Positions 5,153 through 9,782 of a stretch of 64,000 nt of DNA are shown one piece after another. The notes under the pieces are model-generated. The model did no database searches and had not been told where the DNA came from. It saw only the letters and a program-made list of their open reading frames with translations. A program made the position numbers and the translations under genes. The DNA comes from Myxococcota bacterium (GTDB lineage: Bacteria; Myxococcota_A; SURF-8; G963663525). Numbering within the stretch: the stretch's first letter is position 1; each line of letters starts with the position of its first letter. The stretch is taken from NCBI GenBank assembly GCA_963676915.2, contig CAXXVK010000072.1, positions 96,001-160,000 of the forward strand, given 5' to 3'.

Positions 5153-6814
5153 TTACTCCCCTTCGTGTCCTTCCAAAACTCGCTTGTAGATTTCCTCGAT
5201 GCTTTCGTTTTCGAAATCTCCCAGAGGTTTCGGGGTACGCATCAGGCGCACGAAGCGGTCACGGACCGTAGCAAGGTAGCTTGCGTCGTGGATGATACCC
5301 TCGCTTGTGTACGGCAGGTCGAAGAAGTCAAGCGTCGTTTCCGTTTCCGGGGCGATGTCCATACCGAGAAGGTCGGGTTTGGAATGCGCCAGACAGTTGC
5401 GGTTGAGTAAAAAAGTCTGCAAGATCGTCATGTGAATGTGCTGTCTGTGGCGCAGGCAGAATTTCAAGGTATGTTCGAACTCTTGCCGGTCTTCCTCCGG
5501 GCTTAGGATCAGGTACACGCTGGTCTCGATCCCCTGCGCGCTGGTGTTTTCCAGCATTTTCGGCACCTTTTCCAGATCGATACCCTTGCGGTAGCTTTTC
5601 AACCGCTGTTTGTGGGCGGTTTCCAACCCGAAGAAGATGATTCGACACCCGGCGCGGGCCAGCAGTTCGGTGTATTCGGGATCGGCGAATTCCTTATTGA
5701 AACGAGCCTGCATAAACCATTCGATCTCCAGTTTTTCGGCCAGCAGTCGTTCGCAGATTTCCTTTGTAGCTTGTGCGTTGACCGCATTGTCGATGAACGA
5801 AAAACGCCGGACGCCCGTCTGCTCGATGTATGTTCGGATGCGGCGGACGATTTCCTCCGGGTCGAGTTGAATCCATTGGCGGTCGTTGTAGTTGTGCCAG
5901 CAAAACGTGCATTTGCGGTAATAGCACATGCTGGCGCGTTCGATGGGCAACGAAAGTTCGGTGTAAAGGTCGAAATTAAGGCCGGAAAAATCAGGGGGCG
6001 GCAGGTGATCCAACGGCAGAGAGGGCTTTTCGTGGGTCGCTTGGGGGTGACCGTTTGCGTCGCGATAGATCAGGTTGGGTGTTTCTTTGAAATTTTCCTT
6101 GTTTTCGGTGAGATTCACCAGATCGAGCAAAGGTTCTTCTCCGTCGCTAGTGACGAAGAACTCGAAAAAGTCGAAGAAAAACGCATACTCTTTCCGTGTA
6201 AGAAAATCTCGTCCTAGCTTTACGTACGGTCCACCGGCGACCAGTGGAAGGTTGGGGCGAAAGCGTTTCAATTCACGGGCGAAGCGGCAGGCGTACACGA
6301 CCTGTTGCGGAGATACCAGCGAGATGCCGACCACGGACGGCTCGAAGCGGTCGAAAAACGTTTTCAGGCGCAATTTCAAAAAGGTATCCATCAGCGGATC
6401 GCGCACCTGGAGGCGTTCGAGCAGTTTGTCCCGGTTCAGACGATGGATTTCGGTTTGTTCGTAAAGCCAATTGAACAATTCTTTGCGATTTTCGTACACG
6501 AAGCGTCGCAGAGATTCCCCCGAAACGATGTTGCGATCCAGAAAACGCGCGTATAGCTGGCGGACCGAGCGGTAAAAGCCTTCGTCGCCTACTGAAAACG
6601 AGGTTTTGAGCCGTTTCATGAACAGCTCGAACGGGCCTTTTCGAAACAGAAAATCTCCCCAGTACAAGGCGTTCCAGTCGGCTTGCTGTACCGATTTTCC
6701 CTGTGTTTTCAGGTAGGCCGTAAGGCGGGGGAGGGCGATCTCCGGCATGAAATAGCATTCATAGGAGGGCGGAAAAACCAGCCAGGCATCGAGGGGTTGT
6801 ATATCTCGTGGCAT
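5153..6814 (-). CDS. B12-binding domain radical SAM protein
   Basis: N-terminal LVFPP...ALPRLTAYLK, VVGIS..VAGGP cobalamin-binding module, CYYRKCTFC Fe-S motif, FFGLET. ATG overlaps the upstream stop (TGATG). Confidence 0.9.
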   Translation of the reverse strand: MPRDIQPLDAWLVFPPSYECYFMPEIALPRLTAYLKTQGKSVQQADWNALYWGDFLFRKGPFELFMKRLKTSFSVGDEGFYRSVRQLYARFLDRNIVSGESLRRFVYENRKELFNWLYEQTEIHRLNRDKLLERLQVRDPLMDTFLKLRLKTFFDRFEPSVVGISLVSPQQVVYACRFARELKRFRPNLPLVAGGPYVKLGRDFLTRKEYAFFFDFFEFFVTSDGEEPLLDLVNLTENKENFKETPNLIYRDANGHPQATHEKPSLPLDHLPPPDFSGLNFDLYTELSLPIERASMCYYRKCTFCWHNYNDRQWIQLDPEEIVRRIRTYIEQTGVRRFSFIDNAVNAQATKEICERLLAEKLEIEWFMQARFNKEFADPEYTELLARAGCRIIFFGLETAHKQRLKSYRKGIDLEKVPKMLENTSAQGIETSVYLILSPEEDRQEFEHTLKFCLRHRQHIHMTILQTFLLNRNCLAHSKPDLLGMDIAPETETTLDFFDLPYTSEGIIHDASYLATVRDRFVRLMRTPKPLGDFENESIEEIYKRVLEGHEGE

Positions 6815-8346
6815 CAAAAACGCTCCGCAAGCCGGTCGAACAACGGATGTTTCTTGCGCCCGGCGAAAATTTCGGCCTTCGAAAACAGCTTGAGATTGAA
6901 GGTTTTGTAGACATCTTCCATGAACGTTACCGGCAACTCGGGAGAAGCCAGCGGAAACAGGAAGGAATCGAGGTCTTCCAGTCCACGGTCTTCGTACAAA
7001 TGTCGGTATTTGTCGAAATCCTCCGTTCCCGGAATGGGGGTATAGACCCGGATGTCGATCAACACATGTCGCTCGATGATCGCTTTCAGGTCGTCGAGCA
7101 CGTCGTTTTCAGTTTGTCCCGGATAGCCGATCATGATGACCGCGTTGATACGCTGTCGTTCGAATCCTGCTGTCAATGCCGTTTCTACACCGGTATCGAA
7201 GCGCTTAAATAAGTGTCTACGGTGGAATTCGGCGATTTTGTCTTCTCGGGTCGTTTCGAGGGGCATGATGATGTCTTTGAAACCCACGGCTTTCATTTTT
7301 CGAGCCAGATCCATATTAAAACGAGCCAGGGAAAAACCGCTTGGCACGCCAAGGGAAATCCCTCCTTGCAAGTGTATCAACAAATCGAGCAATGCATGGG
7401 CTTGATCGAGATCCAACAATAGATCCGAATCCCAGAAATGCAGTTCACGCAGTCCCCACGCGGAATAGGTTTGCAACTGCTCCAACAGGCTGTCACGATC
7501 TAAAGAGCAGGCCCGGCCTTCCAGTTTACGAACCGCGCAATAGGAGCAATGGTTGTTGCAGCCGTACGAGCTTTTCAAGCTCATTGCCGGGCTTGCATAG
7601 TGTTTCCAGGTGGGTTCGTCGATCCACTGAGCGGCGAGTTCGGCATCCGTGCCGACGATGATTTCGTCCGCGCCGCTGTGCTCGGCATGTTCCGGGCAAA
7701 GGCTTGGATAAATGCCTCCCATCTTGACGTGAGCCGAAGGATAGCGTTCTTTTACCAGTTCGACGGCTTCCCAACTTGTCGGCCAACAGTATGTAAATAC
7801 AGAGGAAATCGCTACTTCTTCCACACCATCGGGAAGGCTTTTAAGTCGCTGCCGGATGTCGTCGGGCATCATGCCGATACGAAACACGGGACGGGCGATG
7901 CCTTCGTTTTCGTAATTGCCGCAGGGAGCCATCCTTCGAACCCGCTCACGACGGAAAAAGGTTTTCCGATTCATGACCGCAGAACCGAGGTTGAAGGCGT
8001 CGAGCAGGTGAACGTCATACCCCTGTTTGCGGTACTGGCTGACCAGTTTCAAGGCGGCAAGCGGAAAATTCGTGACGAAATCGAAGGCGTAGTCCATTAC
8101 CGCCATGGCCGGGTTTTCGAGCGGCGGTACGATAACCAACGCACGTTTCGTTTTTTTCAGCCTGGGAACGCCGGAAAGCGGAACGAAAGAGACACCACTG
8201 CTTTTAGAGATGCTTGTTGGTGGGAAGTTTTCGTGGCTCAGGGGCTTTTTCGTGACGGAATGAGGAGTTTTGGAGTTTTTTTTTTCGTCTCTTGTACAAG
8301 AGCGCCGGGGACTTCCATGCGACCGAAATCTTTCAGACGGTCGCAA
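6814..8346 (-). CDS. B12-binding domain radical SAM protein (start uncertain; may be the distal part of a frameshifted fusion)
   Basis: ALVIVPP, MGGIYPSLCPEH, SYGCNNHCSYC, YTPIPGT. No ATG/GTG with an RBS upstream of the conserved N-terminal strand. Confidence 0.85.
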   Translation of the reverse strand: MRPSERFRSHGSPRRSCTRDEKKNSKTPHSVTKKPLSHENFPPTSISKSSGVSFVPLSGVPRLKKTKRALVIVPPLENPAMAVMDYAFDFVTNFPLAALKLVSQYRKQGYDVHLLDAFNLGSAVMNRKTFFRRERVRRMAPCGNYENEGIARPVFRIGMMPDDIRQRLKSLPDGVEEVAISSVFTYCWPTSWEAVELVKERYPSAHVKMGGIYPSLCPEHAEHSGADEIIVGTDAELAAQWIDEPTWKHYASPAMSLKSSYGCNNHCSYCAVRKLEGRACSLDRDSLLEQLQTYSAWGLRELHFWDSDLLLDLDQAHALLDLLIHLQGGISLGVPSGFSLARFNMDLARKMKAVGFKDIIMPLETTREDKIAEFHRRHLFKRFDTGVETALTAGFERQRINAVIMIGYPGQTENDVLDDLKAIIERHVLIDIRVYTPIPGTEDFDKYRHLYEDRGLEDLDSFLFPLASPELPVTFMEDVYKTFNLKLFSKAEIFAGRKKHPLFDRLAERF

Positions 8347-9782
8347 TAGAACAAATCGTGAAGGCGGTAGTAGACCACGCGATCCACACCCGCTTTCAGC
8401 AGCAGATTGGGGAAATCCCGGTTGTCGGGATCGACGTAAGCCACCACGGTCACGTTGCGTTCAGACAGTCGCTTGATTCCCGCCAGCATGTGCTTGTGGC
8501 CGTTTTCGATGCGGACATACGCATCGTATTCCTCGGGTGTTTGTCCCCACACCGGAACGTGAACCTCGCGAAGTCCCGCTCGCGCGGCTTTTTCGGCCCG
8601 TTCCAGCGTGGCGAAGATCCGGGCGTTGCTGACGGCACAGGCATTGTAGCCGTGCTGTGTGATTTCCTCTAGGATATCAAAAGCTTCCGGGTGTAAGAAA
8701 GGCTCGCCGCCACGTAGCCAAATGTCGGAATAATGAAGCGTTTCGGTGTTCCAAAGCGCATCGAGTTGAGAACGGATGTCCGGTCCCATGGATTCGCTGC
8801 GGCTCTGGCATTCCGGACAGCCGTTGGTGCAACCGGTGTGGAACTCGATTTTTTGGAAATCTCCCAGCGGATACAAGTGGCTTTGGGGGTCCATGCCCTG
8901 CTCGATCATCCGCAAAAACTCCGGCGTCATCATCGGACAACGGGCCTCTTGGTGCCGTGGTGTGAAGAAATGATGTCGTTTGGCACGATCGAGGATGATT
9001 TCCAACGGTTCTTCGCGAATGTTGCCCAAATAGACCGGAACGAAATTACAGGGCTGCACTTCACCATAAGGCGAAATAAATAGCGAACCTCCGCTGATGG
9101 CGGGACAGCCTTCGAAGTCTGGCAGGTTCATACCTTCCGAAACGAAGACGAAGCGGTTGTCTACGTAACGGTTGACGGCGGCTTTTTCTTCGTCGGTAAG
9201 CAGGATGTCGTCGTTGTCGAACCAACTGCCGGATGCCAGCGGATACAACAGACGGATACCATTGACTTTTTTCCGTTTCGCTAGGGCGATCAGCTCTTCG
9301 AGTCGGCCGTCTTTGAGGTGTTCTCGGAAGATACAGGTCGAATAAAACACCGGGATACCTTCGTTTACAAGGATGTCCGTCGATTCCATGATTTCATCGA
9401 ACACGCCTTTACGACGATGCATCTGCTCGTTGAACTCGGGATCGGCGGAAAACAAACTCATATAGAGCAGGCTCAGGCGGGCTTGTTTCAGTTTGCGGGC
9501 GATGTCTTCGGTGATCCGTACACCGTTTGAGTCTAAGGTAAGGTATTGTGTTTTATCGCGAACCGCGTGGAGGATGTCGAAGATATCCTCTCGCAACAGC
9601 GCTTCCCCGCCGAAAAGATTCAGCTCTTTGAGTTTGTGTTCGGACGCGGCCTCGACGACGCGCCGGATTTCCTCGAAGGTCAATTCTCCTTTAGGATCGA
9701 CCGGGTACGAACCTTGAGAGCAATGCACGCAACGACACTGGCAACGATAGGTTACACCCAAAATCAGTCGTTCCAGTTTCAT
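8238..9782 (-). CDS. Tandem radical SAM protein (radical SAM + twitch/SPASM-like domain + second radical SAM domain)
   Basis: CQCRCVHC/GGEALL, twitch-like GCPA..ISPYGEVQPC..GNI, then CTNGCPEC/GGEPFLHP/SNARIF. ATG 9782 has a GGAG RBS. Confidence 0.9.
   Translation of the reverse strand: MKLERLILGVTYRCQCRCVHCSQGSYPVDPKGELTFEEIRRVVEAASEHKLKELNLFGGEALLREDIFDILHAVRDKTQYLTLDSNGVRITEDIARKLKQARLSLLYMSLFSADPEFNEQMHRRKGVFDEIMESTDILVNEGIPVFYSTCIFREHLKDGRLEELIALAKRKKVNGIRLLYPLASGSWFDNDDILLTDEEKAAVNRYVDNRFVFVSEGMNLPDFEGCPAISGGSLFISPYGEVQPCNFVPVYLGNIREEPLEIILDRAKRHHFFTPRHQEARCPMMTPEFLRMIEQGMDPQSHLYPLGDFQKIEFHTGCTNGCPECQSRSESMGPDIRSQLDALWNTETLHYSDIWLRGGEPFLHPEAFDILEEITQHGYNACAVSNARIFATLERAEKAARAGLREVHVPVWGQTPEEYDAYVRIENGHKHMLAGIKRLSERNVTVVAYVDPDNRDFPNLLLKAGVDRVVYYRLHDLFYCDRLKDFGRMEVPGALVQETKKKTPKLLIPSRKSP

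Follow-up and report, generated by a model that had tools for sequence, protein, structure and literature searches.

Does a run of ten adenines at the junction of two radical SAM open reading frames (ORFs) break one gene into two, or does it let one gene yield two proteins? The question arises in a 64,000-nucleotide (nt) stretch of a Myxococcota genome (GenBank assembly GCA_963676915.2, contig CAXXVK010000072.1, positions 96,001 to 160,000), here called the window, whose coordinates are used throughout unless a contig or locus is named. Two minus-strand ORFs, ORF1 and ORF2, overlap across an A10 run, and an initial annotation, made from the letters alone, had proposed that they might be joined by a frameshift into a triple radical SAM protein; it weighed programmed isoforms, phase variation and a misassembled run in a genuinely fused gene. 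The first of these is the reading we favour: with moderate confidence, the site is one of selected recoding at the run, probably by transcriptional slippage, giving isoforms of 514 and 989 amino acids (aa). The source genome of the window (G000) was compared chiefly with G001, a second species of the genus; the genomes compared included no third.

The sequence itself confirmed the description of the junction. The run, at 8285-8276, lies near the end of ORF1, and ORF2 is open across it in the −1 frame, from 8460 to 6817. Centred on the run, the ORF1 frame spans 525 codons upstream and 15 downstream, and the ORF2 frame 58 upstream and 490 downstream. These are two long overlapping ORFs on the same strand, with the 0-frame stop 12 codons past the run and the second frame open across it; the junction carries a sense-strand run of at least ~9 A, here A10. 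As had been claimed, one extra A in the run joins both frames into a product of 989 aa (...QETKKKNSKTPHSVT..., 502 + 487 residues), and transcripts with A8, A11 or A14 would all correspond to the fused frame.

The joined product comprises three radical SAM modules. ORF1 matched the Pfam family Radical_SAM in two stretches (125.8 bits, 2.4e-36) and SPASM over profile positions 4-52 of 67 (30.3 bits against a cut-off of 21.5). It consists of a radical SAM/SPASM module, that is, a radical SAM core with a C-terminal SPASM/twitch Fe-S domain, and a second radical SAM module, with the CX3CX2C motifs CQCRCVHC and CTNGCPEC. ORF2 matched Radical_SAM (66.7 bits, cut-off 29.5; motif CNNHCSYC), and its B12-binding match of 27.2 bits fell under the 32.1 cut-off. 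The initial annotation had read the order as radical SAM-twitch, radical SAM and B12-type radical SAM; the Radical_SAM and SPASM parts of this passed their thresholds, and the B12-binding part did not. No NCBIfam equivalog model reached its cut-off for ORF1, ORF2 or the following gene, ORF3.

Relatives outside the genus carry the same modules in a single protein. A search for longer relatives of ORF2 returned proteins of 958-1003 aa (P0024-P0031), 8/8 of them with both halves and with 36-53% identity to ORF2; an exhaustive search added one of 1000 aa (P0084). At the DNA level the halves stand in one frame in L013, L014, L015/L016 (near-duplicates, counted as one locus), L093, L094 and L099, which are six of the seven distinct more distant loci with both halves. 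The exception, L095 (1895-6009), represents another architecture within this family: a gap of 1.4 kb, containing extra B12-type radical SAM-like sequence, separates its ORF1-like module from the ORF2-like one, and the two are in different frames. Homologues with an uninterrupted ORF are thus present, as in the poly-A frame-change class. In the junction alignment, A10 falls just 3' of FGRMEVPGA, the final motif conserved in the second module, at the start of a linker whose length and sequence vary across all relatives. ORF1 and ORF2 would then be one three-module gene (radical SAM/SPASM, radical SAM and B12-type radical SAM), interrupted in this genus by a −1 change. Two close relatives called as stand-alone proteins, P0003 (56% identity) and P0004 (52%), were rejected as clean split forms; each still has the final conserved motif of the ORF1 module at its N-terminus. 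In the ~1.5-kb flanks of same-order homologues at L003-L005 (32-36% identity), no ORF1-like part was detected at E <= 1e-10, and the protein atlas gave generic B12-type radical SAM clusters only.

Within the genus the gene is split, and the split is conserved together with the run. The G001 ORF2 has 83% amino-acid identity, its ORF1 has the same end (...TKKKTPEPFIRLRRTL), and the two stand in the same −1 relation. The 18-nt block GACG-A10-CTCC is identical between G000 and G001 and stands alone as a conserved island; the linker around it is fast-evolving and heavily substituted, and its length differs by 63 nt, a multiple of three. The ORF1 tail is poorly conserved, reading TPEPFIRLRRTL in G001. 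As a neutral benchmark, the two genomes agree at 362 of 724 four-fold sites, and 33 of the 55 conserved lysines encoded by AAA in G000 are still AAA in G001. At ~50% neutral identity, ten invariant bases have a chance of ~1/1000, the indel rate of runs being ignored; the site is conserved beyond neutral expectation in this one genus. Synonymous divergence (Nei-Gojobori dS) is 1.58 for ORF1, 1.15 for the ORF2 core and 1.42 for ORF3, and the ratio of non-synonymous to synonymous divergence (dN/dS) is 0.060, 0.086 and 0.095, respectively. With a dN/dS of 0.086, ORF2 is evidently expressed and constrained like its neighbours rather than a dead gene, and because the split is older than a divergence of dS >1, it is neither recent nor decaying.

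Further lineages agree. A 615-nt contig of run X4, from another study and from a 94%-identical strain, spans 8106-8720 with 35 substitutions and no gaps; since it has no gap across the run, that strain also has A10. Two proteins from two other public contigs, P0032 (98% identical to ORF1) and P0033 (85%), have the same end, TKKKT followed by 11 residues. Coverage by runs X2 and X3 is limited to parts of 7821-8170 and stops short of the A10. The tract is therefore A10 in 3/3 lineages with DNA, and a fourth lineage is split likewise, as judged from its proteins. The homologue check suggested in the initial annotation accordingly gave fused genes in distant relatives and split genes with A10 in G001 and the X4 strain.

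This uniformity bears on two further explanations, a phase-variable switch between A10 and A11 in the DNA and a recent inactivating frameshift on the way to gene loss. Long homopolymers are hypermutable in replication (PMC1088944), and the source genome has a lineage-specific A9 break in PtsI (described below), which would suit either process. Yet tract length does not differ among the strains, as phase variation would have it: none of the three DNA lineages has A9, A11 or A12, and the fourth shows the same split. Decay, for its part, is hard to reconcile with the age of the split and the constraint on ORF2. Both explanations seem highly improbable to us, and the phase variation considered earlier finds no support in the lineages seen.

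Strain-level substitutions indicate which frame is under selection on each side of the run. Among the 35 differences from X4, 26 could be classed in both frames, the remainder lying near contig ends. Of the 18 substitutions upstream of the run, 15 were synonymous in the ORF1 frame and 3 were not; in the ORF2 frame the counts were 1 and 17. For the 8 downstream substitutions the relation was reversed, with 0/8 synonymous in the ORF1 frame and 5/8 in the ORF2 frame. Counted by codon, 4/7 changed downstream codons were synonymous in the ORF2 frame, and the non-synonymous changes were H to R, R to K and K to R, the last from positions 8152 and 8153, which share a codon. Two substitutions fell in the ORF1 tail; both were non-synonymous in the ORF1 frame and one, at 8254 in the overlap, was synonymous in the ORF2 frame. 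The latter lies upstream of CTG 8241 and changes S to L in the ORF1 tail, a change also seen in P0032. An R to K difference in the ORF1 tail of G001 and P0033 would, if due to one base, be AAG to AAA and synonymous in the ORF2 frame. These events are few and concordant in direction, and they support a switch of the selected frame from that of ORF1 to that of ORF2 at the run. Positions 8209, 8194 and 8164, synonymous in the ORF2 frame, lie upstream of both CTG 8160 and TTG 8139, so ORF2 translation starts above these codons. An independent start at CTG 8160, which had been named as an outcome that would count against fusion, is disfavoured by these changes.

The signals for a separate start of ORF2 were likewise poor. 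Before the conserved KRALVIVPP strand (from 8148), the candidate codons in the ORF2 frame are TTG 8346, CTG 8241, ATC 8211 and CTG 8160; TTG 8139 lies inside the strand and the first ATG, 8106, past it. No ATG or GTG precedes the strand in G000, and no GGAG, GAGG or AGGA core occurs within 20 nt upstream of any candidate. In this genome a Shine-Dalgarno (SD) core at −20 to −5 precedes 39% of long ORFs (866 of 2207; background 11%), with a sharp positional peak, and both ORF1 and ORF3 have GGAG with ATG. The recorded ORF2 gene call (P0001, 427 aa) begins at MDYAF, past the strand. The earlier statement that ORF2 has no ATG or GTG with a ribosome-binding site before the strand, and that its first ATG lies past it, was upheld for G000, whereas G001 has a GTG overlapping the ORF1 stop; the earlier list of candidate codons had omitted TTG 8139.

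The run might also be a sequencing or assembly miscall, the true tract being A11 and the organism simply encoding the fused 989-aa protein. G000 (5.18 Mb, 52% GC) contains 38 A/T runs of length 9, 6 of length 10 and none longer. We defined a junction pattern as an upstream frame of 150 or more codons that closes within 45 codons, together with 150 or more codons downstream in another frame of the same strand. It occurred at 374/20000 random positions (1.9%) and, for sense A-runs, at 303/16708 of A5, 127/4969 of A6, 24/1285 of A7, 8/333 of A8, 2/38 of A9 and 2/6 of A10. A10 stands at junctions more often than by chance. Because A5 to A8 stay at the random background and the rise comes only at A9 and A10, a general homopolymer error is not indicated. 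G001 has eight runs of A10 and none longer; those of junction type among the examined runs are the radical SAM site (L002) and a chlD-type site described below.

Two A9 breaks in G000 are lineage-specific. PtsI, which lies outside the window, is split by A9 (C72:200488-200496; L105 1589-1597, minus strand) into ORFs of 256 and 327 aa, and one more A restores the frame; PtsI of G001 is intact (586 aa) with no run there. The other A9 (C55:26720-26728; L104 1721-1729) separates a 443-aa Prim-Pol ORF from a 456-aa ORF without a Pfam match, and fusion would need one A fewer or two more. A Prim-Pol query found no match in G001, so this prim-pol/helicase-like locus is probably on a mobile element. 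Both breaks may be errors, decay or genes rescued by slippage. A T9 at C43:49775 also fits the junction pattern; it lies between two ordinary genes and was set aside. Separately, in G001 an A9 at L118 shows the junction pattern (253 codons upstream, 231 downstream in another frame), and A9 runs at L122 and L133, near the ends of long ORFs (234 and 499 codons upstream), have near-identical contexts (...TCGTTGCTCC-A9-CGGCCCCGAACA), which may represent a repeated element with a slippery run.

A miscall would be in keeping with the need for one more A at 3/4 junction-type runs in G000 (radical SAM, chlD-type and PtsI) and with a contig k-mer depth of ~6 in X1 and ~3.7 in X4. Against it stand the identical A10 of G000, of X1 (the likely source run of G000), of the X4 contig and of G001, and the matching split proteins from the two further public contigs (P0032; P0033 with P0002). 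Shorter runs (A5-A8) show no excess of broken genes, G001 has no run above ten, and 151-nt records in X2 and X4 suggest short reads, which probably call A10 well. Since independent assemblies agree and shorter homopolymers lack such an excess, the assembly error raised in the initial annotation is very unlikely; what weight we leave on miscalls is owed chiefly to the A9 breaks in G000.

The second junction-type A10 of G000, outside the window at C25:11171-11180 (L103 1772-1781), leads from a ChlI-like AAA+ ORF (...SDGKKKAPANPVTPIR, stop) to a vWA ORF. A10 is kept at the corresponding site of G001 (L108 2616-2625). Past the run, the −1 frame is conserved in 20/24 residues (SPGKPRDTHPLKSLNQDNPAMSWG versus SPGKPSDRQPLKSLNQPNPAMSWG) and the 0-frame tail is not (3/10, APANPVTPIR versus AQESPLTDNL). 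The site belongs to the published 'magnesium chelatase' chlD-type recoding class. Because the radical SAM site shares the chlD-type layout in the same cells, slippage on its A10 is plausible in G000.

Several points weigh against recoding at the radical SAM site, and some of them would suit true gene fission, in which ORF2 reinitiates at the codon overlapping the ORF1 stop (GTGA in G001, CTGA in G000) and A10 is merely a retained lysine tract. The in-frame GTG seen in G001 is used by one source's gene caller (P0002); CTGA and GTGA lie at the same aligned place in the two species, in G001 as a classic coupling arrangement, and the position of the ORF1 stop is kept in all four lineages. ORF2 and ORF3 likewise overlap (TGATG), and the linker length difference, a multiple of three, fits any upstream start. 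Stand-alone B12-type radical SAM relatives of the ORF2 module (<=38% identity) exist in the wider family, so this module can work alone, and ORF2 could be translated on its own, either alongside slippage or in its place. Upstream of CTG 8241 the strain-level signal consists of one substitution (8254) and one deduced from proteins, and over the 36-nt overlap G000 and G001 share 4/12 versus 5/12 residues in the two frames, which are indistinguishable there. A role for the 514-aa form is speculative, as fused relatives make no separate short product. Tract lengths were read at the level of assembled (Logan) contigs, and the PtsI and prim-pol/helicase-like breaks are possible miscalls of long A-runs. 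We infer from sequence that slippage occurs at the run, that it is transcriptional and that both products are used.

Fission, however, leaves the run and its surroundings poorly accounted for. G000 and the X4 strain have only CTG at the overlap, with no SD core, and still ORF2 shows the same constraint as the genes beside it. The invariance of all ten A's and the flanking bases at dS >1, in a freely diverging linker, is not explained by a retained lysine tract when AAA is kept at just the 33/55 lysines noted above. The change at 8254, upstream of the CTG, moreover respects the ORF2 frame while altering the ORF1 tail. Fission is an unlikely explanation in our view; reinitiation at GTGA or CTGA may nonetheless add free ORF2 protein.

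Recoding at the run would therefore be the better account of the fused homologues, the kept A10 and −1 relation, the frame switch and the weak start signals, and the programmed short and long isoforms proposed in the initial annotation are favoured. Standard reading would yield the 514-aa two-module protein. Reading the run one A longer, or two shorter, would lead into the ORF2 frame and yield the 989-aa three-module protein, as in relatives. RNA polymerase slipping on the run would produce a mixture of mRNAs with A9, A10, A11 and so on, and the tract would set the ratio of short to long product. Slippage is evident from runs of ~9 bases in many genomes (PMC1088944), and at poly-A/T sites the frame may change in transcription or in translation (PMC3711429).

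A ribosomal shift would give the same products, through −1 frameshifting on A_AAA_AAA or A_AAA_AAC or through sliding on the AAA lysine codons. Valid X_XXY_YYZ heptamers do lie within the run in the ORF1 frame, and ribosome sliding on poly-A has been reported (PMC4363877), beside the translational route already cited for poly-A/T sites. Folding of the 90 nt downstream of the run, however, gave no structure better than shuffled sequence at either the radical SAM or the chlD-type site in either genome (z-scores of +0.89 in G000 and +0.81 in G001 for the former, −0.26 and +0.56 for the latter), and no SD-like stimulator was found upstream. An Rfam scan of 7900-8700 returned two chance-level matches only (E 0.36 and 0.71). 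All ten A's are kept, beyond what a heptamer needs, and in the chelatase genes efficiency scales with run length (PMC3711429), which is probably more typical of polymerase slippage. The lack of a stimulatory structure downstream fits slippage on the run itself, and together with the conservation of all ten A's it favours RNA polymerase; we rate a ribosomal shift as quite unlikely.

A wider scenario is offered tentatively, being rather doubtful as a whole. This is a free-living genus (5-7 Mb; 52% GC in G000) that might routinely express genes through A9-A10 slippage. The radical SAM run would then fix a ratio of two-module to three-module proteins working together, like the small and medium chelatase subunits, and the same tolerance would let the genes with the PtsI and prim-pol/helicase-like breaks stay functional.

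Feature coordinates are collected in Table 1. ORF1 homologues begin at the MKLERLI/MRIERLI position, and ATG 9782 has GGAG 12-15 nt 5' of it; TTG 9833, an alternative start in the ORF list, would add 17 residues. A shorter A7 run at 8151-8157, after CTG 8160 in the linker, is not conserved: two of its bases are changed in the X4 strain, and G001 also differs.

Table 1. Positions of the run, the reading frames and the surrounding elements in the window.
Feature	Position	Strand	Description
A10 slippery run	8276..8285	minus	...CAA GAG ACG AAA AAA AAA ACT CCA..., ORF1 frame
ORF1, 0 frame, 514 aa	8238..9782	minus	ATG 9782, stop TGA 8240-8238
ORF1 0-frame tail TPKLLIPSRKSP + TGA	8238..8275	minus	overlaps the −1 frame continuing into ORF2
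Linker in the −1 (ORF2) frame, NSKTPHSVTKKPLSHENFPPTSISKSSGVSFVPLSGVPRLKKT	8149..8277	minus	length and sequence variable among relatives
CTG of the ORF2 frame overlapping the ORF1 stop (CTGA)	8239..8241	minus	GTG at the same place in G001 (GTGA); candidate reinitiation codon
Conserved 18-nt block GACG-A10-CTCC	8272..8289	minus	G000/G001 alignment
ORF2 core, B12-binding-type radical SAM	6814..8148	minus	KRALVIVPP strand to stop TGA 6816-6814
ORF3, second B12-binding radical SAM gene	5153..6814	minus	ATG 6814, GGAG upstream

ORF3 matched Radical_SAM with a sub-threshold B12-binding match, as did ORF2. Its start overlaps the ORF2 stop in TGATG (6812-6817) with GGAG 13 nt upstream, an ordinary coupled junction, unlike the ORF1/ORF2 boundary. 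ORF3 homologues (43-47% identity) directly follow the fused gene in L013, L015, L093, L094 and L099, while L014 has just an 84-aa fragment of one (49% identity), at the end of its contig. What is conserved is therefore a pair, the three-module enzyme and one further B12-type radical SAM protein. Adjoining the ORF3 homologue, a further B12-binding radical SAM gene was seen at L093 7051-8388, L099 6992-8359 and L094 4813-6177, which brings the radical SAM modules of these cassettes to five; no gene for a substrate or precursor was recognised in them. The neighbours of the fused-gene loci had nothing in common beyond the ORF3-like gene and this further one.

The radical SAM site is a well-supported candidate for a new case of poly-A recoding, in a radical SAM enzyme. 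Our literature search returned nothing relevant on radical SAM proteins with slippage, programmed frameshifting or recoding, nor on proteins that combine several radical SAM domains; the main text of PMC3711429 contains no mention of 'Radical SAM', and its supplementary cluster tables could hold such a cluster. If the reading is right, poly-A recoding, known from chelatases, dnaX, IS elements and secretion genes, also takes in a radical SAM enzyme, and the locus is a natural case of one gene giving two enzyme forms in a set ratio. Should A9-A10 slippage prove regular in the genus, recoding would, for the first time in a radical SAM enzyme, determine the subunit composition. For annotation, calling the locus as two genes, the second started past its first conserved strand (P0001), would lead to a misreading of architecture and chemistry. 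Two signs distinguish recoding from error here: a hypermutable tract that persists although synonymous divergence is saturated, and a change in the selected frame where the tract lies. The cassette of a three-module enzyme and a further B12-type radical SAM protein has no assigned function and merits biochemical study.

Among known systems the closest comparison is the chlD cluster, in which a −1 shift occurs at poly-A in genes annotated as two and found fused elsewhere (PMC3711429, PMC9227772). Both sites have a sense-strand poly-A in an inter-domain linker, a downstream ORF in the −1 frame and a 0-frame stop a few codons past the run; both are annotated as adjacent gene pairs, are fused in other taxa and keep the run across species. 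They differ in that the chelatase modules are AAA+ and vWA rather than radical SAM, and in that the short product there is the known small subunit, whereas the short radical SAM form has no assigned role. The chlD cluster was also assayed with reporters, which gave frameshifting of 63% with A11, 40% with A9 and 10% with A7 (PMC3711429), whereas the radical SAM site is known from sequence, so far in one genus. By analogy, these values suggest tens of percent of fused product at the radical SAM site.

Other systems share single aspects. In tssM1 of Citrobacter rodentium, RNA polymerase adds A's to an A11 before a premature stop, giving truncated and full-length protein, and both forms and their ratio were found by experiment to be needed (PMC4256274). 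As here, a poly-A lies just before a stop in a multi-domain protein whose relatives encode the full length; the tssM1 run is A11 and its slippage experimentally demonstrated, whereas the present run is A10 and its slippage deduced. Slippage on A9 in dnaX of Thermus thermophilus, and two-ORF dnaX genes with A10 (PMC1088944, PMC3711429), resemble our site in setting a fixed ratio of two products with a common N-terminal part through A9-A10. The templated frame encodes the long product in Thermus dnaX and the short one at the radical SAM site. Coupled split genes with ATGA or GTGA overlaps, lastly, resemble the ORF1/ORF2 boundary of G001 (GTGA) and the ORF2/ORF3 boundary (TGATG). The ORF1/ORF2 junction of G000 departs from them in having CTG without an SD core and in its conserved A10 island, which has no role in coupling.

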